From contig JAFXTH010000006.1 in NCBI GenBank assembly GCA_017525035.1, positions 7,714 to 71,713 of the forward strand: 64,000 bases of DNA. The letters run 5' to 3'. The notes under the pieces are model-generated. The model had not been told where the DNA came from and made no database searches. It saw only the letters and a program-made list of their open reading frames with translations. Positions within the stretch are counted from its first letter, which is position 1; each line of letters starts with the position of its first letter. This stretch comes from Bacilli bacterium. Lineage in GTDB: Bacteria > Bacillota_I > Bacilli_A > RF39 > UBA660. Positions 3,006 through 22,716 of this stretch are shown here, one piece after another. A program made the translations under genes and the position numbers.

Positions 3006-3992
3006 ATGGATATATTAGGAATACCAATAGTAATAGGTAGTGCGTGTGCACTAGCAAAGGCAATAGAAATTGGAATTGTATTAAAAAAAGAAACGACATT
3101 CAGATTAGGAAAAATAGGAAGACCTAATAGAGAAGTGTTAACACCACTTAACTTAGATGTTATTAAAGGTTTGGATGAAGAGTATAAATTAAAAACGGAT
3201 ATTAACAAATTAGATGAATTATTAGATAGAAGAAATAAAACATACTTACGTAAGAACATTAGAAATCTAAAATTAGGAAACCTATCTAAATATGATTTTA
3301 AAGATCCAAATGGTGCTTATAATCCTGCATCAAATAAAATTGAATTAGGTCAAATAGCTGATAGAAGTGAACTAGACCATGAACTATTACGTATAGCAAG
3401 TACTACTAAAGTATTTGGACATGTCTTTAGTGGATTTAGTCAATCTACTTTCTTTAGTAACGTTGGTAAAGGATTAAATACTGGATATATACAAGTATTA
3501 AATAGCAGATATTTTGATCATAAACCAAATAATGAATTTTATCCGGAACGACTATTTGCCAGATGTATTGAAAAGATGGTTGGAAAAGATAACATGGAGA
3601 ATTATTATTTCATGGGAGAATTAAGTTTCTTAATTGAAGATCTTGAACCATACATGAAAGAAAGCGATGTAGAAGCATTAATAATAAGCTTAGATATTAT
3701 TAATAAATATGGACATAAAGAAAAGAAATCAAAAAGACAGGAAGAACTTGTTAAGAAAGCATATATTAAGGCTACTCTTGCTACAAGAAAAGGTTTATTA
3801 CTTCTAGTACAAAAATCTGGTTATGACCCATCTATGATAGATATGTATTATAAGTGTACAAATATGATTAATGAGTTATTAAATGAAAATGGAATAACTG
3901 AAGAAGATTTATCTATTGATGATGTTGTAAAATTGGAACCAATAAATCTTATGGAAATAGCAAGAAAAAGAAAAGTAAGAATCGAGAAATAA
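3006..3992 (+). CDS. hypothetical protein with N-terminal hydrophobic helix
   Basis: 328-aa ORF behind a TGCTATAAT promoter (about 2970-2978) and GAGGGAA RBS. No recognisable motif. Confidence 0.6.
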   Translation: MDILGIPIVIGSACALAKAIEIGIVLKKETTFRLGKIGRPNREVLTPLNLDVIKGLDEEYKLKTDINKLDELLDRRNKTYLRKNIRNLKLGNLSKYDFKDPNGAYNPASNKIELGQIADRSELDHELLRIASTTKVFGHVFSGFSQSTFFSNVGKGLNTGYIQVLNSRYFDHKPNNEFYPERLFARCIEKMVGKDNMENYYFMGELSFLIEDLEPYMKESDVEALIISLDIINKYGHKEKKSKRQEELVKKAYIKATLATRKGLLLLVQKSGYDPSMIDMYYKCTNMINELLNENGITEEDLSIDDVVKLEPINLMEIARKRKVRIEK

Positions 3993-4020
3993 AAAAAACT
4001 GCATTATGCAGTTTTCTTTT
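3991..4020. terminator. bidirectional rho-independent terminator
   Basis: A-run, ACTGCA-TTA-TGCAGT hairpin, T-run, between convergent genes. Confidence 0.7.
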
Positions 4021-4774
4021 TATTTGTTTTTTTAGCTGGTTTTTTAGTTTCTTTTTTAACTGGTTCTTTAACCTCTTTTTTAGGTTCTTCTTTCTTTTCT
4101 TCTTTAGATACAGCTTTCTTAGCTCCACCACTTAGTTCTTCATAAGCGTACATGAATGTTATATTCATATAAGGGAATAGCCATATCATAAGAATACCTA
4201 AAGTTAAACCTGTTAAGAACATCCATCCAATGAATGATAGACCAAGAACAAATAATTCTGCCTTATGTCCGTTTGTGATATCCCAAGTTTTTCTCATAAC
4301 TTCTCTTGAAGTTAATTCTTCGTTATCAACATATACTTCTTGGTAGAATGAAAGTCCAATAGCAAAGATGATACCTGGAATTATCAATAAGATTGAAGCA
4401 AGACCTATTACTAGTCCAACTAGAATGCTAAGAATAAGTGTAGGTACGATATGACCTTTAACATACTTATATGGCATTGTCCATTCTTCTTCTTTACCAC
4501 GAACTAGGTGTAAACAATATTTAGTATATCCAAACATAAATACTGTTTCTAGAATTCCAAAGACACCACCTACGCAAGCCCCTACAACGCTAATAATGTC
4601 GTTTGTAGTTGCTTCATCAAGGTCAGCTATAGTTACTGGAATACCTATTACCATTCCAACTAAAAATGCGAATATTAAAATAGTAACATTCCACATTACA
4701 ATTGGTTTCCAAAGATACCATTTTTTACCTTCAATTTTCTCTTTAGCTTTTTCTTTTAAAACAACTCTATCCAT
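4004..4774 (-). CDS. DUF975-like integral membrane protein with Lys-rich C-terminal tail
   Basis: The N-terminus (REKAKEKIEGKKWYLWKPIV) followed by 5-6 TM helices is typical of DUF975. The C-terminus is a KKEEPKKEVKEPVKKETKKPAKK low-complexity tail. Confidence 0.6.
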   Translation of the reverse strand: MDRVVLKEKAKEKIEGKKWYLWKPIVMWNVTILIFAFLVGMVIGIPVTIADLDEATTNDIISVVGACVGGVFGILETVFMFGYTKYCLHLVRGKEEEWTMPYKYVKGHIVPTLILSILVGLVIGLASILLIIPGIIFAIGLSFYQEVYVDNEELTSREVMRKTWDITNGHKAELFVLGLSFIGWMFLTGLTLGILMIWLFPYMNITFMYAYEELSGGAKKAVSKEEKKEEPKKEVKEPVKKETKKPAKKTNKKKTA

Positions 4775-4863
4775 AATACTTCTCCTTTAAGAATATTATA
4801 CTCCATATATAAATGTATTTCAATTCACTAATTATATTATGTTATAATATATTTGGTGATAAT

Positions 4864-5445
4864 ATGAAGTGCCCAAAGTGTAATGCCGAATATAAAACAA
4901 ATTTAAAATTTTGTCCTAAGTGTGGAGAAGTATTTGAATCAAATGATATTCAAATGTTTTCAGATATTTATAATTTAGAATTATTAGAAATGTATTATCC
5001 AAATAAAGAAGAAAAAATATATACTAAAAAGATTAATTATAAATATTTACTTCTTGGATATGTTTATGCAATATACAAAAGAATGTATAAACATGCAGCA
5101 ATTTCTATAATATTATTTGCACTAGGATTGTTAATATTATATTATTTTAAATTAATGGTAGTTTATAGTTTAGGTTTTTTGTTTTACTTTATATTTTTTA
5201 TTATGATATCACCTATAGTATTCTACATTTATAATGTATTCAATTTTGATCGTTTATTATTGTTGTATAGAAAACAGAGAATAAATAAAATAATTTCAAA
5301 AAATAGGGATAAGTCAAAAGAAGAAATAGAAAAAATAATAATTAAAGATAGTGTTAATGATAAATCTGGTGCAGTTATAACTGGAGTAATAAGTACTATT
5401 ATTTTGATTATCTATATTTGTTTATTTATTAGAAGATTTCTTTAA
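4864..5445 (+). CDS. zinc-ribbon membrane protein (DUF2628-like); paralog of 12119-12673
   Basis: MKCPKCNAEY..FCPKCG zinc ribbon followed by TM helices around an AIYKRMYKHA motif. The listed start 4813 overlaps the TGTTATAAT promoter (4840-4848), so ATG 4864 behind GGTGA is preferred. Confidence 0.65.
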   Translation: MKCPKCNAEYKTNLKFCPKCGEVFESNDIQMFSDIYNLELLEMYYPNKEEKIYTKKINYKYLLLGYVYAIYKRMYKHAAISIILFALGLLILYYFKLMVVYSLGFLFYFIFFIMISPIVFYIYNVFNFDRLLLLYRKQRINKIISKNRDKSKEEIEKIIIKDSVNDKSGAVITGVISTIILIIYICLFIRRFL

Positions 5446-5506
5446 AAAAACAAAAAGGATTATTTGAATAAATAATTCTTTTTTTAATTGTTACTAAATT
5501 TATAAT

Positions 5507-5534
5507 CACTAAATTATTTATAATTCATACATTA
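5507..5534 (+). promoter_or_regulatory. orphan copy of the amidase promoter (sigma-K/E-like AC-N16-CATACATTA)
   Basis: The 32-nt block 5525-5556 (TCATACATTAATATAGGTGATTATGATGAATG) matches 9379-9410 with 2 mismatches. It includes a -10-like CATACAtTA, an AGGTGA RBS and ATGAATG. Confidence 0.4.
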
Positions 5535-5744
5535 ATATAGGTGATTATGATGAATGGCATTGGACTCATTTTGTTTGGAAATTATACTATGAAAGAATGC
5601 CAGATGAATGTAAAAATGAAATGAATAATTATATTGAAACAAAGAAGTCAAACAAAATATCTGATTATAGATTAAATGCTTTACAACGATATAGACCATT
5701 AGTTAAGAACAAGAATAAATAGTTTTTAGATTAACTAATTAACT

Positions 5745-5870
5745 AGCAAGTACTGAATTTGTAATACAAACTCAATTTTGGATTTGAATTCACTGCTTGC
5801 GAGCAAGCACTGAATTTATGGCCAAGTGCCACAAACCCAAATATCTAATGGGAGTTTTTCCCCAATCCCC
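5745..5870 (+). repeat. conserved hairpin-module element, copy R1 (possible structured ncRNA)
   Basis: About 90% identical to 12898-13022. Two AGCAAGYACTGAATTT seeds (5745, 5802). A 15-bp imperfect stem joins 5746-5760 to 5786-5800. It is followed by an AT-rich hairpin plus T-run at 5881-5909. Confidence 0.6.
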
Positions 5871-5916
5871 TTTGCATAAAAATTAAGTTTATTACTTAAT
5901 TTTTTTTTATTCTAAT

Positions 5917-5933
5917 CTCTACTCAAAGTAGAG
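5917..5933. promoter_or_regulatory. perfect palindrome CTCTACT-CAA-AGTAGAG at the -35 position of the XRE-ABC promoter
   Basis: 7-bp arms. It lies about 21 nt upstream of the extended -10 TGTATAAT (5954-5961). Candidate auto-operator for the HTH of the downstream gene. Confidence 0.35.
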
Positions 5934-5979
5934 AAGCAATATTATTGACTTATTGTATAATTAATTTGAGGTGATTTAA

Positions 5980-6963
5980 ATGGACTATGAAAAAATAGGT
6001 ACTTTCATTTTAAATCTTAGAAAAGAAAAGAATATGACACAACAAGAATTAGCAGATAAACTTCATGTAACCGATAAAGCGGTATCAAAGTGGGAAACAG
6101 GAAGAGGTATTCCAGATATTGAAACTATAAAAAATCTTGGAAAATTGTTTAATGTAACAGAAAAAGAATTATTAAATGGTGAAAGAGATTATAAGAAAAA
6201 AGAAATAGATCCTAATCATCACTCTATTGTTCTTGATGTTCAGAATTTATCGAAGTCTTTTGGAAAAAGAAAAATACTAAGTAATGTTAATTTGAAGATA
6301 TATGAAGGAGATATAGTTGGGTTAATTGGTCCTAATGGTGCTGGGAAAACAACTTTAATAAAAACAATTTTAAGTTTATATAAAGCAGATACAGGAACAA
6401 TAAAAATATGTAATTATTTAATAGACAATGAATTAGAAAAGGCTTTATCAAAAGTTGGTTCAATAGTAGAAAATCCTGATTTATATCAAAACATTTCAGG
6501 ATGGAAAAATTTACAAATTGTATGTTTAACAAATCATATAAAAGATACTAGTATTATTAATAGCGTAGTTAAACTTGTTGGACTAGAAGATAGAATAAAA
6601 GATAATGTAAAGAGTTATTCTCTTGGTATGAAGCAAAGACTAGGTCTTGCTGCTGCATTAATACGAAAACCCAAAATACTAATATTAGATGAGCCGACAA
6701 ACGGATTAGACCCATATGGTATCAAAGATTTAAGAAAAATATTAAAATACTTAAGCGAAAAAGAAAATATGAGTATTTTAATAAGTAGCCATATACTTGC
6801 AGAAGTAGAAAATATTTGCGATAGAATAATTATCATAAAAGAAGGAAAGTTATTAAGTAATTTTGGAATAGAAGAAATTAAAAACAAGCATATTAGTTTG
6901 GAAGATGAATTTATAAGGAGAACTAAAAATGTAGAGGAGAATTTGTATAATGAAAATAATTGA
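5980..6963 (+). CDS. XRE-family HTH fused to an ABC transporter ATP-binding domain
   Basis: N-terminus NMTQQELADKLHVTDKAVSKWETGRGIPD (HTH_XRE). Then Walker A GPNGAGKTT, signature YSLGMKQRL, Walker B ILILDEPTNGLD and H-loop SSHIL. Confidence 0.85.
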   Translation: MDYEKIGTFILNLRKEKNMTQQELADKLHVTDKAVSKWETGRGIPDIETIKNLGKLFNVTEKELLNGERDYKKKEIDPNHHSIVLDVQNLSKSFGKRKILSNVNLKIYEGDIVGLIGPNGAGKTTLIKTILSLYKADTGTIKICNYLIDNELEKALSKVGSIVENPDLYQNISGWKNLQIVCLTNHIKDTSIINSVVKLVGLEDRIKDNVKSYSLGMKQRLGLAAALIRKPKILILDEPTNGLDPYGIKDLRKILKYLSEKENMSILISSHILAEVENICDRIIIIKEGKLLSNFGIEEIKNKHISLEDEFIRRTKNVEENLYNENN

Positions 6964-9330: not shown

Positions 9331-9360
9331 GAAAAAGATAAACATCTTTTTCTTTTTATT

Positions 9361-9388
9361 CACTTATTAATACAAATCTCATACACTA
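9361..9388 (+). promoter_or_regulatory. sigma-K/E-like promoter of the split amidase gene
   Basis: tCAC-N16-CATACACTA. CATACAnT matches the B. subtilis sigma-E -10 consensus, and AC-N16/17-CATAnnnTA matches the sigma-K consensus. AGGTGA RBS, ATG at 9404. Confidence 0.45.
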
Positions 9389-9403
9389 ATATAGGTGATT
9401 ATA

Positions 9404-9460
9404 ATGAATGAAAGAACTACTAAAAGAGTAGTAGTTGATGCAGGGCATGGAGGACACTGA
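9404..9460 (+). pseudogene. 5' fragment of split N-acetylmuramoyl-L-alanine amidase (codons 1-17, then element-derived His-stop)
   Basis: MNERTTKRVVVDAGHGG-H-stop. DAGHGG is the start of the Amidase_3 motif that continues at 20804. Confidence 0.85.
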
Positions 9461-12118: not shown

Positions 12119-12673
12119 TTATAAAAAGATAAATAATATTAATATTATAGAAACAAATATAGATATAATTAATAATTTATAATCAATTTTATTTTGTTCA
12201 ACAATTTTCTTATTAAGTTCTTCTTTACTACATTCCTTAGAATTATTTAATAATTTTCTATATTTAGACATTATATCTTTGTTAATCAAGCTACTTAATA
12301 ATACTGGATGGTATTTAACAAATAATACCACTAAGATTACTAATAATGGACCACTTAATGGAAATAGCCTTATATATAGTAATATTACCACATCCCATTT
12401 TTTTATACAGTATAATATGAACAGAAACCATAATAATAAATATATAGTTGTTCTAATCATTTTCTTAGAAATTGAATAAAACCAACCAAATAAAAAGTAT
12501 TCATCTTTAGGATTCCCATTGTTTTCAAAATTATATTGAATATACTGTTCTACATCATATGATGAATATTTTTCTGAAAATTCATCTACTATTTTTGAAT
12601 TAAATAAGTTACCACATCTAGGGCAAAAGTTTAATTGCCCTTTGAATTTAGAATTACATTTCGAACATATCAT
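12119..12673 (-). CDS. zinc-ribbon membrane protein (DUF2628-like); paralog of 4864-5445
   Basis: MICSKCNSKF..FCPRCG followed by TM helices. The listed start 12715 overlaps a TGGTATAAT promoter on the minus strand, so ATG 12673 behind GAAAGGA is preferred. Confidence 0.65.
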   Translation of the reverse strand: MICSKCNSKFKGQLNFCPRCGNLFNSKIVDEFSEKYSSYDVEQYIQYNFENNGNPKDEYFLFGWFYSISKKMIRTTIYLLLWFLFILYCIKKWDVVILLYIRLFPLSGPLLVILVVLFVKYHPVLLSSLINKDIMSKYRKLLNNSKECSKEELNKKIVEQNKIDYKLLIISIFVSIILILFIFL

Positions 12674-12741
12674 ATATATTTTCCTTTCATAAAAATTATA
12701 CCATAAAATAGACATTTTAGTTAAATAGTAAGTTACTAGCT

Positions 12742-12897
12742 AGCAAGCACTGAATTTGTCCGACAAAGTAAGTTTTCAGTAATTGCTAATAACAGCAAGC
12801 ACTGAATTTGTCCGACAAAGTAAGTTTTCAGTAATTGCTAATAACAGCAAGCACTGAATTTGTCCGACAAAGTAAGTTTTCAGTAATTGCTAATAAC
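12742..12897 (+). repeat. three perfect tandem copies of a 52-nt hairpin unit
   Basis: Unit AGCAAGCACTGAATTTGTCCGACAAAGTAAGTTTTCAGTAATTGCTAATAAC at 12742, 12794 and 12846. The arms AGCAAGCACTGAA / TTCAGTAATTGCT pair at 11 of 13 positions. Confidence 0.95.
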
Positions 12898-13022
12898 AGC
12901 AAGTACTGAATTTGTAATACAAACTCAATTTGGATTTTAATTCACTGCTTGCAAGCAAGCACTGAATTTATGTCCAAGTGCCACAAATCCAAATATTCAA
13001 TGGAGGTTAAACCCCAATCCCC
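12898..13022 (+). repeat. conserved hairpin-module element, copy R2
   Basis: About 90% identical to 5745-5870 (1 indel, about 11 substitutions). Seeds at 12898 and 12954. Confidence 0.6.
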
Positions 13023-13071
13023 AGCCCTTTTCTATTAATAAAAAATATGATACAATATTATCAAGTTAGAG

Positions 13072-13800
13072 GTGGTCAAAGTGATAGTAGTATCTTCTAT
13101 ATTAATTATACTTCTATTATCAATTTATCTTATTGAAAGAAAGCAATTAAAAAAGGAAACCAAAAAGAAATTATTACTAACATTGTTTGTAGTATTATTA
13201 ACTAATATTATATCTTTTAGCCCCATTGCATTAATACTTGTTTTAATAGTTATCATACTGATATATTCATGGAAAGAAATAAATGAAAAAACAAAGAAAA
13301 AAATTTACAAAATATGTGCTATTACTTTAGGAATCACATTATTATTTTTCATTTTAACACCTAGGTGGCTTTACTATCGAGTATTGTACCTTGATGATAG
13401 AGTAAAAATAACTGCTAAGATATATGTAGATGGAGAACAAATGAATATAGATGAAGATTTTGTTACTATAGGTGGTAAAGGAATAGGAAAAAAACACATC
13501 AGCAGTGGTGATGATGGAATAAAAATATCATTCAAGGGAAACGAATATGAAAATTATCATATTAATATGAAAATAGAACCATATCACAATGATTATTACA
13601 TCGACTTATTACTTCAACATTGGAATTGGTGGGATATAAATCGTATTGATGTAGTAATAAATATAGACACAAAAGAAAACACAATTAGTTATTCTGTAGA
13701 AAATAGATTTATTTCTGAAGAAAAAAATTATACAGAAGATGTATTAACATTGAGTGAAACAAAAGAATTATCAACAATTAATAAACTGTTTCTTGGGTAA
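13072..13800 (+). CDS. membrane protein, unknown function
   Basis: GTG start (13072 or 13081) behind AGAGGTGG. TGATACAAT extended -10 at about 13047-13055. 3-4 TM helices then an approximately 130-aa soluble domain. Confidence 0.55.
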   Translation: MVKVIVVSSILIILLLSIYLIERKQLKKETKKKLLLTLFVVLLTNIISFSPIALILVLIVIILIYSWKEINEKTKKKIYKICAITLGITLLFFILTPRWLYYRVLYLDDRVKITAKIYVDGEQMNIDEDFVTIGGKGIGKKHISSGDDGIKISFKGNEYENYHINMKIEPYHNDYYIDLLLQHWNWWDINRIDVVINIDTKENTISYSVENRFISEEKNYTEDVLTLSETKELSTINKLFLG

Positions 13801-18071: not shown

Positions 18072-18335
18072 ATGCATGAAAAGAAAGAACTAGATATGAG
18101 TAATCATAGGATATGGAAAGATAAGAATATTAAACCTGAATGTAAAAGAATATTTGCTTATCTATATTCAAAAGGATTTAATGTATCAGATTTCTATTTA
18201 AATGTGGGAGACATACAACAAGTAGTAAGAATTAAAAATGTTGGATTAAGAAAGAATCTAAGTACATTAGAAGATAATAAGTATCTAATATTTAGAGAAT
18301 ATGATACAGGAATGTATGAAATAAGTATTTGTTAG
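18072..18335 (+). CDS. small winged-helix-like protein
   Basis: AAGGAGGGG RBS. 87 aa. CKRIFAYLYSKGF...IQQVVRIKNVGLRKNLSTLEDNKYL resembles phage/plasmid wHTH replication or regulatory proteins. Confidence 0.5.
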   Translation: MHEKKELDMSNHRIWKDKNIKPECKRIFAYLYSKGFNVSDFYLNVGDIQQVVRIKNVGLRKNLSTLEDNKYLIFREYDTGMYEISIC

Positions 18336-18457
18336 ATTGGTAAAACACTAATAAATAATGGTACAGTAAATGTTTTGAGATTTATGTTAGTACCTTTTCT
18401 ATTAGATATAGAAAAAACATCGGTAAGAAAAGTCCTAATTTAATAATAAGGAGAATT

Positions 18458-18928
18458 ATTATATTAAATGGTCAATTTATCATTACTCCTAGAATATTAT
18501 TTAATGATGAGAACTTATCAAGAACTGAAATAGATGTTCTTAGTCTCATTATTTCACTTACCTTAAAAAAAGGATTTTGTTTTGCGAGTAATGACTATTT
18601 AAAAAAATATATTAATACATCAGAAAGAACAATTACTAGTTCATTGTCAAAATTAAAACAATTAAAATATATAATAATTAAAACAAATAACAATAAAAGA
18701 AGAATATATCTTAATAGAGATAAGATACCAGCAGAAATTTCTAAATGGATAGCAAGAAATTGCAATGGAGAGGTAGAAAAAACTTGCGACTATAAAATAA
18801 AGAATAAAAATAAAAAAGAGAATAAAAACATTAATCCATATTGGTTAGATCATCCTGAAATGATTAAAGAACCGAGCATTACTGAAGAAGAAAGAAAAGA
18901 ATTGGAAGACTTACTTAATAATTTCTAA
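18458..18928 (+). CDS. HTH (replisome-organizer/DnaD-N-like) protein with non-canonical or damaged start
   Basis: The frame is open from 18359. The conserved-looking N-terminus GQFIITPRILFNDENLSRTEIDVLSLIISL...ERTITSSLSKLKQLKYI lies upstream of the first ATG (18644). AAGGAG at 18448 is followed only by ATT/ATA codons in frame, and ATG 18468 is out of frame by 1 nt. Confidence 0.45.
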   Translation: MILNGQFIITPRILFNDENLSRTEIDVLSLIISLTLKKGFCFASNDYLKKYINTSERTITSSLSKLKQLKYIIIKTNNNKRRIYLNRDKIPAEISKWIARNCNGEVEKTCDYKIKNKNKKENKNINPYWLDHPEMIKEPSITEEERKELEDLLNNF

Positions 18929-19149: not shown

Positions 19150-20757
19150 ATGGCTATGGTAGAAAAGGTAGGTGTATATTGTAGATTATCTGATGAAGAT
19201 AGAGATAAAGTAAATAAAACTGATGATAGTGATAGCATAATAAATCAAAGAAGTATGTGTTTAAAATATGCCAATCAAAATGGTTGGGATGTAGTAGATA
19301 TATATTCTGATGATGACTTTTCTGGAGCTGGAACTTATAGACCAGATTTTGAAAGACTTATTAAAGATTGTGAAAGTGGAAAAATTAACCTTGTTCTTTG
19401 TAAATCTCAATCAAGATTTTCAAGAGATATGGAAGTAATAGAAAGATACCTTCATAATAAGTTCATAGAGTGGGGTGTAAGATTCGTTAGTATCGTAGAT
19501 AATGCAGATACTAGCATTGAATCAAACAAGAAATCTAGACAGATAAATGGGCTTATAAACGAGTGGTATTTAGATGACTTATCACAAAATATTAAAAAGT
19601 CATTAAAGAACAAAAGAGAAGATGGTTTGTTTATGGGTAGCTTTGCTTCTTATGGATATGAAAGAGATGAAGAAGATTATCATAAACTAATAATTGATCC
19701 AGTAGCAGCAGAAGTTGTTAGAAAGATATTTCAAATGTATGCAGAAGGATATGGATATCACAGAATATGTGTTTATTTAAACAATAATAAGATTCCACCA
19801 AGATCCATTTATAAAAAACAAAAAGGTAGTAAATTTGTTTGTGGAAGTTGTGATTATGATAATGTTATGTGGAATCCAGATACAATTGCTCAAATATTAA
19901 GAAATGAAGTATATATTGGTAATTTAGTTCAAGGAAAAACAACACATGTTAGTTATAAAAATCATAAAAAGAAAAATGTTCCTCAAAAAGAATGGTGCAA
20001 GATAGAAAATACCCATGAACCAATTATTGATATGGAAACCTGGAATAAGGTCCAAGAAATACTAAATAATCACTTTAAGACAACCAAGAATAAGCAAATG
20101 ACTTATTTCACAAAAAAAGTGTATTGCAGTTGTTGTGGTAAAGCATTTATGAGAAATGTTTATAGTGTTAAATCAGAGAAAACTGGAAAAAGAGCATATA
20201 TGCAATGTAAAGGAAATAAAAAGTATCATATTTGCTCAAATAATAAAGCAATTAGAATGGATAAACTCGAAGAAATAGTATTAAAAGAAATAAATGATTT
20301 ATTAAAGAATTACTATGATAAGAATAATTTAAAAGATCTCTATGAAAAAAGATGTTTACAAGAAACAAATAATATTGATTCAATAAAAAATCTAGAAAAA
20401 GAAAAAGAAGAACTAAATAAAAAGATTTCTACTAATAAAAACTATTATAGAAATCTATTTGAAGAAAAAGTAAAAGGTGTAATTTCTGAAGATATGTTTC
20501 AAATGATGTCGAAAGACTATTTCAATGAAATCGAAAATATGATGATTAGAATTGAAGTAATTGATAATGAGATAAAAGAGATAAAAAAAGACAAAATTGA
20601 TAAGAAACAAGCTACAGATATATTAAATAAATATAGACACATTAAAAAGTTGAATAAAGTAATTCTAGATGAATTTATTGATAAGATTTTTATAGGAGAA
20701 ATTGATAAAAACAATAATACAAGAGATATAGAAATAATATGGAACTTTGAGTTCTAA
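19150..20757 (+). CDS. large serine recombinase
   Basis: N-terminal resolvase domain with VGVYCRLSDEDRD (catalytic Ser), DSDSIINQR and SQSRFSRD. Recombinase domain, then Cys-rich zinc ribbon (CSCCGK...CKGNKKYHICSN), then a long coiled-coil C-terminus. The start may be ATG 19156 behind GGAGG. Confidence 0.92.
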   Translation: MAMVEKVGVYCRLSDEDRDKVNKTDDSDSIINQRSMCLKYANQNGWDVVDIYSDDDFSGAGTYRPDFERLIKDCESGKINLVLCKSQSRFSRDMEVIERYLHNKFIEWGVRFVSIVDNADTSIESNKKSRQINGLINEWYLDDLSQNIKKSLKNKREDGLFMGSFASYGYERDEEDYHKLIIDPVAAEVVRKIFQMYAEGYGYHRICVYLNNNKIPPRSIYKKQKGSKFVCGSCDYDNVMWNPDTIAQILRNEVYIGNLVQGKTTHVSYKNHKKKNVPQKEWCKIENTHEPIIDMETWNKVQEILNNHFKTTKNKQMTYFTKKVYCSCCGKAFMRNVYSVKSEKTGKRAYMQCKGNKKYHICSNNKAIRMDKLEEIVLKEINDLLKNYYDKNNLKDLYEKRCLQETNNIDSIKNLEKEKEELNKKISTNKNYYRNLFEEKVKGVISEDMFQMMSKDYFNEIENMMIRIEVIDNEIKEIKKDKIDKKQATDILNKYRHIKKLNKVILDEFIDKIFIGEIDKNNNTRDIEIIWNFEF

Positions 20758-20794
20758 ATACTAATAATAAATTTGGACTTTTCCGATGCCCCGA

Positions 20795-22000
20795 CATGGA
20801 GGAAGCGATCCAGGTGCTGTTAATGGAAATATAAAAGAAAAAGATTTTAACTTACAAGCAGCAAATTATATATATGAAAGATTAAATGAATTAGGAGTTC
20901 CAGTAGCAATTACTAGAATAGATGATGAAGATATTGGAAGAAGTGAAAGACTAAGAAGAATGGTTAATTCATTTGGTAATGATAAAGATGTGATAATTCT
21001 TTCTAATCATATTAACGCAGGAGGTGGAGAAGGAGCAGAAGTAGTTTATTCTTTAAGAAATGATGACACACTTTCTAAAATGATACTTGATGAAATAGGA
21101 AATGCTGGTCAAATAGAAAGAAAAGTTTATCAAAGAAGATTACCAGAAAATCCAAGTAAAGATTATTATTACATAATGCGTGAGACTCCAAATACTGAAG
21201 CAGTATTAATTGAATATGGCTTTATTGATAACCCAAGAGATTTGTATAAACTTCAAAATAATTTATATGATTATGCTGAAGGTGTTGTTAAAGCTGTTAC
21301 TAATTATATAGGTGTACCTTATATTCCAAAGGAAGAAACAATTGTAGATACAAATACTTATATTGTTAAAAGTGGAGATACACTTTATTCAATTGCAAGA
21401 GCTTATAACACTACGGTGGATGAATTAAAAAGAATTAATAGGTTATCTAATAATGTTTTATCTATTGGGCAAACTTTATTGATACCGGAAACTGAAGAAG
21501 AACTTCAAAGTGATTATTTAATATATACTGTTAAGAAGGGTGATACATTATATTCAATTGCAAGAGCATTTAACGTAACTGTGGATGAGATAATTACGCT
21601 AAACAGATTAAATAGTATTGGCTTATCAATTGGTCAACAATTGTTAATCCCAGAAAATGGAATTCAAATAATCGGAGTTGTTGATTACACAATAAAACCT
21701 GGTGACAGTTTATGGAAAATTGCTAATAGATGTGGTGCAACTGTTGATGACATTGTTAAACTAAACAACCTAGATTCAACAATTATTTATCCAGGACAAA
21801 TAATAAAGTTATCTGAGCCATGCGCAGCAAAACAAAATTACGAAGAATATGAAACTTACATAGTTAAAAGAGGCGATACACTTTATTCAATTTCAAAAAT
21901 GTTTAACACCACTCCAAGTGTGATAAAAGAATTAAATAATTTAAATACTGATATGCTTCAAATAAATCAGATGCTTATATTACCAAAAGAAAATGTCTAA
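20795..22000 (+). pseudogene. 3' part of split N-acetylmuramoyl-L-alanine amidase (Amidase_3 + 4 LysM)
   Basis: HGGSDPGAVNGNIKEKDFNL...LSNHINAGGGEGAEVVY (Amidase_3 zinc ligands), followed by four LysM repeats (Y.VK.GDTLYSIA..). The listed ATG 20786 lies in element DNA and has no SD. Confidence 0.88.
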
Positions 22001-22630: not shown

Positions 22631-22704
22631 AGGGGATTAGTTAAATGGTATAATAATGGTCTCCAAAACCACTGTTGGGAGTTCGATTCTCTCATCCCCT
22701 GCCA
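22631..22704 (+). tRNA. tRNA-Trp (anticodon CCA)
   Basis: 74-nt cloverleaf. Acceptor AGGGGAT/ATCCCCT, D-arm GTTA-AATGGTA-TAAT, anticodon loop CT-CCA-AA, T-arm GGGAG-TTCGATT-CTCTC, discriminator G, encoded CCA. Confidence 0.9.
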
Positions 22705-22716
22705 TTTTGAATATTA

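Follow-up and report, generated by a model that had tools for sequence, protein, structure and literature searches.

A recently expanded 52-nt hairpin array in a serine-recombinase element of a Bacilli bacterium as a putative amplified module of an orphan Tn1549-type oriT

The origin of transfer (oriT) of Tn1549 was reportedly mapped by Tsvetkova et al. in 2010 to the intergenic region upstream of mobC, with a minimal extent of 28 bp that comprises an inverted repeat and a core. In Tn1549 on pMG2200 this mobC-upstream region consists of AGCAAGCA, hairpins and then TTGGGGAAATCCCCAAACCCC, and Monoglobus is similar. Recombination between tandem oriTs is known from R1162 and R388. Relaxase- or oriT-mediated site-specific recombination has likewise been described for the Pre/RSA system of small staphylococcal plasmids (PMC4993578). 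Orphan oriT copies mobilised in trans are documented (PMC4993578, PMC8136818, PMC12084326). For Faecalibacterium such mobilisation is suggested: elements without a relaxase contain sequences that resemble the putative oriT found before mobC in MOBP7 integrative and mobilisable elements (PMC12084326). The ribbon-helix-helix (RHH) accessory protein SmpO binds ossA and ossB, two oriT sites about 50 bp apart (PMC8136818, PMC4993578). Here we describe a locus in a 64,000-nt stretch of DNA from a Bacilli bacterium (hereafter the window), in which three identical 52-nt hairpin units are fused to one of two oriT-like elements, R1 and R2. We interpret the array as a DNA element in which R1 and R2 would be orphan copies of a Tn1549-type oriT and the 52-nt unit a recently amplified core-plus-hairpin module, a reading to which we assign a probability of roughly 60%.

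The array and the two oriT-like elements are composed as follows:
12742..12793, plus strand: unit U1, formed by the seed AGCAAGCACTGAATTT, a small inner hairpin TTTGT-CCG-ACAAA, the inverted seed TTCAGTAATTGCT and then AATAAC
12794..12845, plus strand: unit U2, 100% identical to U1
12846..12897, plus strand: unit U3, 100% identical to U1 and identical at 52/52 positions to the single unit of the relative L068
12898..12953, plus strand: module X of R2, the seed in its T variant with a long hairpin whose 3' arm is the inverted seed AATTCACTGCTTGC
12954..13022, plus strand: module Y of R2, in which a seed is joined by a degenerate hairpin, GGAGG-TTAAA-CCCC and, as C-rich box, AATCCCC; Y is the terminal portion of the oriT-like element
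5745..5870, plus strand: R1, the second oriT-like copy, made of X (5745-5801) and Y (5802-5870) without 52-nt units

The three perfect units of the original prediction, at 12742, 12794 and 12846, are indeed identical over all 52 nt. The 16-nt seed AGCAAGYACTGAATTT lies at 12742, 12794, 12846, 12898 (T variant) and 12954, in agreement with the five predicted seeds spaced 52, 52, 52 and 56 nt apart, and it recurs in R1 at 5745 and 5802; the first 16 nt are common to units, R1 and R2, as had been claimed. Eight seed matches are found in the window at up to two mismatches, where 0.05 are expected by chance. Tandem Repeats Finder describes the array (12742-12915) as 3.3 copies of period 52 with 99% matches and a score of 341. 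No open reading frame (ORF) of at least 50 aa runs across it, which agrees with its proposed non-coding nature, and the perfect identity of the units supports the recent expansion that had been suggested. The 8-mer ACTGAAAA, shared with an attachment (att) arm and already discounted in the original prediction, deserves no more weight now, given 11 occurrences in the window against 7.0 +/- 2.5 expected, three of them within the array. R1 (5745-5870) and R2 (12898-13022) are about 90% identical and represent the sole two loci of this kind in the 1.25-Mb genome, both in the window and both in mobile DNA. Module X of R2 is a paralogue of the 52-nt unit that is older and has diverged from it, and module Y of R2 is orthologous to the L068 element.

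Folding confirmed the predicted hairpin of the 52-nt unit, in which 11 of the 13 bases of AGCAAGCACTGAA find a pairing partner in TTCAGTAATTGCT. Folded as single-stranded DNA, the unit reaches -8.8 kcal/mol (z = -3.6) on the plus strand and -8.2 kcal/mol (z = -3.1) on the minus strand, and an alternative pairing between the 3' arm of one unit and the seed of the next reaches -7.1 kcal/mol. The DNA fold of module X of R2 is of similar kind (-9.8 kcal/mol, z = -3.9). Since the 3' arm of the unit is an inverted copy of the seed, the whole region is a row of seeds in alternating orientation, and near-perfect palindromes of the form AATTCACTGCTTGC-AA-GCAAGCACTGAATT are present in both R1 and R2.

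By comparison with other genomes, the seed is best understood as the conserved core box of an oriT-like element that stands beside mobC/relaxase genes, a point missed by the original prediction. Exact-pattern seed scans of public genomes and metagenomes revealed many metagenome-assembled genomes (MAGs) of Bacillota that carry the seed with extended similarity, and 56 elements with a shared architecture were recovered. These are 70-110 nt long and comprise (TGTCCT)AGCAAGCACTGAATTTG, a variable hairpin closed by GAATTTG/CAAATTC, a GGGG-loop-CCCC structure and a terminal AA(T/A)CCCC. The seed, AGCAAGCACTGAATTT, which includes the 5' arm of the first inverted repeat of the element, is the best-conserved block and holds 13 of the 18 invariant alignment columns. 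Compensatory changes are found in the first hairpin (G-C to A-T, T-A to G-C) as well as in the second (GGGG/CCCC to GGGA/TCCC). Within the window's own family, 117 of 401 genomes possess the seed with at most one mismatch, compared to about 20 hits with a reversed control.

The gene context of the relatives is that of a mobilisation locus. The first downstream ORF is NikA-like (PF21983) in 15 of the 33 relatives scanned. In L070, L102, L116, L122, L138, L155 and L160 some 20 nt separate the end of the element from a gene of about 105 aa, which is followed by a gene of about 450 aa; for L102, L122 and L155, Pfam assigns the shorter product to NikA/MobC-like proteins and the longer one to PF03432 relaxases. 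L122 additionally encodes DUF3801/PcfB and a VirD4-type coupling protein.

A family model built from 32 elements, with the window, L068 and G373 left out, recognises the window copies by sequence homology: the Y part of R2 (Y2, 12948-13024) with 39.8 bits (E = 4e-9), the two parts of R1 with 36.7 bits (Y1) and 33.3 bits (X1), the X part of R2 (X2, 12892-12947) with 29.4 bits, and the first unit (U1, 12736-12793) with 28.3 bits (E = 5.6e-6). The family has an inverted repeat beside a conserved core; in the window the units and X parts fold well, and the Y parts do not. Blastn against the PLSDB plasmids returned no match for the window array or for a canonical element, the seed scan of viral contigs gave single matches alone, none of which passed the extended-motif check and all of which we treat as chance, and a literature search by sequence strings retrieved nothing relevant.

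Two further observations concern the distribution of the seed. Its commonest form in the window's family of ~1-Mb genomes is AGCCAGCACTGAATTT followed by the perfect hairpin GAATTTGTAC-TCCC-GTACAAATTC; this variant often occurs 2-4 times per genome, and this oriT type is widespread in the family. In the window itself a weak third match of the oriT model lies on the minus strand at 2604-2669 (17.4 bits, E = 0.005), with the two-mismatch seed ATCAAGCACTGACTTT at 2648-2663 inside a DUF308 ORF (2343-2852), and this match may be due to chance or represent a decayed copy.

In the window's lineage, one additional module of seed, hairpin and inverted seed usually stands in front of the complete element:
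L069, L167 and L169: extra module of 53 nt, flanked by the genes of a large serine recombinase and of a NikA-like protein
L166: extra module of 52 nt, upstream of a membrane-protein gene
L168: extra module of 45 nt
G373, of the same genus as the window: extra module of 53 nt
L068: extra module of 52 nt, identical to the window unit at 52/52 positions

Because the relatives possess a single extra module, we regard the unit as an old partial duplication of that half of the oriT which holds the core and the inverted repeat. The window departs from its relatives in carrying three perfect copies of the unit, followed by the diverged X and the terminal Y. Seed number differs between related elements, in line with the proposed variability in copy number, with one seed at the first L068 site, two in G373, in L166, L069, L167 and L169 and in R1 of the window, and five in R2. 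An independent two-seed element is present in another lineage (L145, minus strand, ~140-262), where a first seed, with its long hairpin, precedes AACAAGCAATGAATTT, a further hairpin, GCTTGTTAGGG and then CCCCTAAAACCCC; judged from this case, duplication of the core module seems recurrent. In L069 a gene for a 623-aa large serine recombinase (659-2530) is situated beside the 3' end of a tRNA-Trp (1-67), similar to window 22644-22709. The two-seed element of L069 lies between this recombinase gene and the NikA-like gene, with no relaxase within 8 kb, which makes L069 a candidate for a mobilisable element that carries the accessory protein alone.

The flanks of the elements provide insight into their history. 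The G373 locus was put together from L327, L322 and L326, reverse-complemented, and compares with the window and L068 as follows:
Window R1: left flank, KAP remnant; right flank, XRE-ABC
Window R2: left flank, Zn-ribbon; right flank, membrane protein
L068: left flank, KAP-NTPase gene (98% identity to the window); right flank, membrane-protein gene (85%)
G373: left flank, ABC-FtsX / Zn-ribbon (80% identity to the window); right flank, XRE-ABC / ABC2 / XRE (94%)
5549..5724, plus strand: 3' remnant of a KAP-family NTPase gene at the left flank of R1 (Pfam KAP_NTPase), with 98% nucleotide identity to L068

In L068, where the gene of this KAP-family P-loop NTPase is intact (3748-5487, minus strand, 579 aa), it is joined directly to the membrane-protein gene via a single seed and Y. 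G373 has the reciprocal combination of flanks, through an R1-type element. Taken together, the four flank combinations of the window, L068 and G373 show the element to have been, as far as can be read from these alignments, a recombination junction for gene blocks. The Y subtype always travels with the right flank, which locates the exchanges in the seed/X part, and homologous exchange within the 73-nt seed-X-seed stretch would suffice for the block swaps. The order in the window is R1, the XRE-ABC block, the amidase-5'/att block, the ABC-FtsX block, the units and R2. Across the three genomes, this order is most simply described as a circular permutation of the G373 order that was cut open at R and placed into an L068-type element.

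We propose that R1 and R2 would be relaxase-less oriTs of the type located upstream of mobC/nikA and a MobA/VirD2-type (PF03432) relaxase in Tn1549-like elements, whether conjugative or mobilisable. Each 52-nt unit would then correspond to the 5' half of such an oriT, core box plus hairpin, without the 3' GGGG/CCCC-AATCCCC part. It is possible that this module was amplified to three perfect copies by misalignment of the bounding 16-nt seeds, through replication slippage or unequal exchange; alternatively, a relaxase may have initiated at one seed and terminated at the next. The perfect identity of the units and their borders exactly at the 16-nt seeds fit both routes equally. If functional, the units might give additional docking sites or hairpins to relaxosome proteins that a helper element provides in trans, and as the genome has no cognate mob genes the array is probably neutral here. 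The seed-bounded element would also have been the crossover point for block exchange between related serine-recombinase elements.

Several observations weigh against an oriT origin of the array. The gene that follows R1 is an XRE-ABC gene and the one that follows R2 encodes a membrane protein; neither element has mob genes or a mobC/nikA-relaxase operon beside it. This genome contains no NikA-like (mobC/nikA) gene and no intact cognate relaxase, the sole relaxase match being an open frame of 109 aa (25 bits) on contig C11. For this reason we call R1 and R2 orphans, and nothing in the genome is able to use the element. The Y parts of R1 and R2 are poorly structured when folded alone (z = -1.1); given that they are also diverged, the copies may be dead, and R1 and R2 are thus orphan and possibly decaying. 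Any activity of theirs would depend on a helper that acts in trans. On Tn1549 the family model scores 14 bits (E = 0.04) and matches the 3' box alone, and the link to the Tn1549 oriT, which draws on position and short shared boxes, is weak. The asymmetry of the wobble pairs on the plus strand (8 G-T versus 5 A-C) does not single out one strand as the one that folds. The unit count of three is that of the assembly. Finally, an XRE-HTH-ABC gene directly follows the family element once in the window and at two places in G373, and an operator for a regulator of the element might be positioned in this way.

The elements concerned, each just ahead of an XRE-HTH-ABC ATPase fusion gene, are found at window 5745-5980 (R1) and, in G373, on the minus strand of L322 at 1901-2022 and 5749-5807, in paralogous modules; the association may reflect a shared cargo module or a regulatory link. 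On contig C11 a gene for a VirD4/TraG-like coupling protein, 27% identical to its L122 counterpart, and a short piece of a relaxase domain lie at ~129366-130418 and 171245-171421; they may be the remains of a conjugative element that once acted as helper.

The immediate surroundings of the array contain the following features:
12119..12715, minus strand: zinc-ribbon membrane-protein gene, likely start 12673
13072..13800, plus strand: membrane-protein gene (242 aa) downstream of R2; the junction is also conserved in L068
9455..20794, strand not assigned: large-serine-recombinase element that contains the array, with the recombinase gene at 19150-20757 (Pfam); it splits a LysM amidase gene
5878..5908, plus strand: terminator-like AT-rich hairpin with T-run (RNA fold), directly after R1 and absent after R2

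The array fills the divergent intergenic region between the zinc-ribbon gene on the minus strand and the membrane-protein gene from 13072, as originally described, and its location inside the recombinase element is borne out by the amidase pieces 9353-9454 and 20793-21033, which are contiguous in G373. A sigma-70-like promoter predicted for the zinc-ribbon gene (12724-12695) is directed away from the array, its -35 being 18 nt from the array's left edge, and the extended -10 TGATACAAT of the membrane-protein gene (13048-13056) is downstream of R2. Thus no predicted promoter reads into the units, and the array is not obviously transcribed. The flanking genes code for two membrane proteins, one of them with a zinc ribbon, as well as for an ABC exporter and sigma/anti-sigma factors. 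No Rep domain, as would be expected near plasmid iterons or a replication origin, was found among the scanned neighbours, a scan outside of which lie small winged-helix-turn-helix genes (18072-18928).

The small ORF to the left of R1 (5499-5724) consists of the KAP remnant fused to a partial amidase promoter/start block (5499-5556), which is similar to 9353-9410. This block of about 100 nt, with the amidase promoter and first codons, occurs more than once per locus in the window (5499-5556, 9353-9454), in L068 and in G373. In the latter, one amidase block adjoins the 3' part of the amidase gene, whereas another is located 20 kb upstream beside element-like DNA. The repetition suggests either tandem accretion of elements at the site or elements that carry a replacement 5' end, and consequently the intact amidase of G373 may not mean a truly empty site.

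A phase-variable role of the array has no positive support. It is positioned upstream of both predicted flanking promoters, neither between a -35 and a -10 nor inside a gene, and differences in seed number are seen between genomes alone. A 52-nt unit is not of the repeat type that drives classical phase variation. The array is not a proven genetic switch, and it is not a new RNA.

The exact number of units needs separate consideration. The source genome is a MAG of 24 contigs and 1.25 Mb with 88% completeness, and if it was built from short reads the unit number may be unresolved. It is conceivable that the repeat is real but occurs in the organism in another or a heterogeneous number, and that the three copies are an artefact of assembly; in favour of this are the state of the MAG and the perfectly periodic run of 162 nt (12742-12903), which is longer than a typical 150-nt read. 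We nevertheless consider this unlikely, as the contig passes through the array with unique flanks on both sides and a three-unit array is resolvable with k = 141. Single units of the same sequence in independent assemblies (L068, L166) indicate that the unit itself is real.

A bolder variant of the oriT interpretation would make the seed the site of nicking. In this class of oriT the nick generally falls some 8 nt past the repeat, within (C/G)(C)TTG/C- or ATCCTG/C-like cores. On the minus strand the window seed reads as a hairpin, then AGTGCTTG, then CT. The same geometry is seen in pC221, with GAATATAC-AACGCTTGCC after its inverted repeat, and in the RP4-type YATCCTG box, and the minus strand of Tn1549 has CACTCCC-TATGCTTGCT. 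By analogy, the seed is a candidate for the nick core of the oriT; this placement of the nick draws on these cores and on the pC221 and Tn1549 sequences. The array could then be regarded as five tandem minimal oriTs, with the 52-nt duplications and block exchanges as footprints of relaxase initiation and termination at alternative nick sites. We hold this to be improbable. If it were true, orphan oriTs would be sites of cassette exchange, through which cargo is reshuffled among the serine-recombinase elements of these small-genome gut bacteria.

The seeds could instead be operator sites for a regulator of the element, such as the XRE-HTH-ABC fusion, a membrane-anchored XRE protein or a sigma/anti-sigma pair, with the unit number tuning the divergent genes. 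Alternating seed orientation and the near-perfect palindromes in R1 and R2 would suit protein binding, the array lies 18 nt upstream of a predicted -35, and a spacing of 52 nt approximates five helical turns. However, the corresponding spacing in relatives ranges from 45 to 57 nt, so the sites are not phased, and the hairpins are kept by compensatory changes that a duplex operator would not need. The same element also occurs in distant Clostridia beside mobC/relaxase genes with no XRE-ABC gene nearby, and we consider an operator function rather doubtful.

It is least probable, in our view, that the array acts as a structured small RNA or leader RNA whose tandem hairpins and C-rich tail would titrate a protein or base-pair with ribosome-binding sites, as RsaE/RoxS or CsrB do. 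As RNA, the array with R2 (z = -5.7) and R1 (z = -4.0) do fold more stably than shuffled controls, a terminator-like hairpin follows R1, and in relatives the element, which ends about 20 nt before the mobC start, is probably transcribed. The weak RsaE-like match from UCCCCAAUCCCCUUUG, by contrast, has 22.3 bits against a gathering score of 79 and is explained by the C-rich box together with the terminator hairpin after R1. No predicted promoter reads through the array on either strand, R2 is without a terminator, and an RNA would have to be reconciled with two loci alone in the genome, both in mobile DNA; the association with relaxosome genes accounts for the conservation without any RNA. With Rfam 15, tRNA-Trp is the sole family that passes the gathering threshold in the window, none is found for the array copies at the E-value threshold either, and the five canonical relatives have no family match. 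When R1 with its terminator was used as query in a family-wide BLAST search, the AT-rich terminator alone matched.

Three other identities were rejected: an ECF-sigma promoter, as TGAAT and CGAC are just ~5 nt apart in the seed; a serine-recombinase att site, as ~70-110 nt with variable hairpins are conserved and tied across taxa to mobC rather than to a recombinase; and a CRISPR-like array, as the 'spacers' are identical.

If R1 and R2 are orphan oriTs as we suppose, a conspicuous and puzzling repeat can be assigned to an origin of transfer in annotation, and an 11-kb serine-recombinase element without conjugation genes becomes potentially mobilisable by a helper element. The oriT family would be common in an uncultured small-genome lineage, and its core module prone to tandem duplication, with 1 to 5 copies. 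Should a relaxase drive the swaps at the junctions, orphan oriTs would constitute an overlooked route of module exchange; if no relaxase is involved, the array would be an ordinary slippage product in decaying mobile DNA.

The Tn1549-like elements (MOBP7) of Bacillota, conjugative and mobilisable, are among the closest described systems. Compared by eye, Tn1549 shares with the family the box order of AGCAAGCA, inverted repeat and GGGG-loop-CCCC-AA(A/T)CCCC, and the elements of the relatives occupy the same place, in the intergenic region right before a gene set of mobC, a PF03432 relaxase, PcfB and a VirD4-type coupling protein. The window copies differ in having no adjacent mob genes and a diverged terminal part, and the core-plus-hairpin module, which is single in Tn1549-like elements, is present in tandem two (R1) or five times (R2).

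The oriT mimics of the staphylococcal pWBG749/pSK41 type resemble R1 and R2 as oriT-like sequences on DNA without a relaxase gene. By analogy, the binding of an RHH protein at two sites about 50 bp apart is the closest precedent for the repeated seeds. In contrast to the mimics, no helper or cognate relaxase was identified in the genome of the window, and where the mimics have two short specificity sites, whole core-plus-hairpin modules stand in perfect tandem here.

With Pre/RSA, R1162 and R388 the window has in common that the element, in three genomes, is situated at the exact junction of exchanged blocks and that the unit runs from seed to seed, a pattern which initiation and termination at neighbouring nick sites would produce. 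A role of a relaxase in the window is conjectural, as homologous exchange or replication slippage explains the same pattern.

The bacterial interspersed mosaic elements (BIMEs) and repetitive extragenic palindromes (REPs) of enterobacteria are alike in their alternating imperfect palindromes, tandem arrangement and variable copy number. They are, however, dispersed in tens to hundreds of copies per genome, in contrast to the two loci in mobile DNA of this 1.25-Mb genome, and differ further in that the window element is linked to mobilisation genes in its relatives. Set against these systems, the array appears to be an unusual form of a known DNA element, in which the core module of an orphan oriT of the Tn1549 type has genuinely and recently been amplified in tandem.

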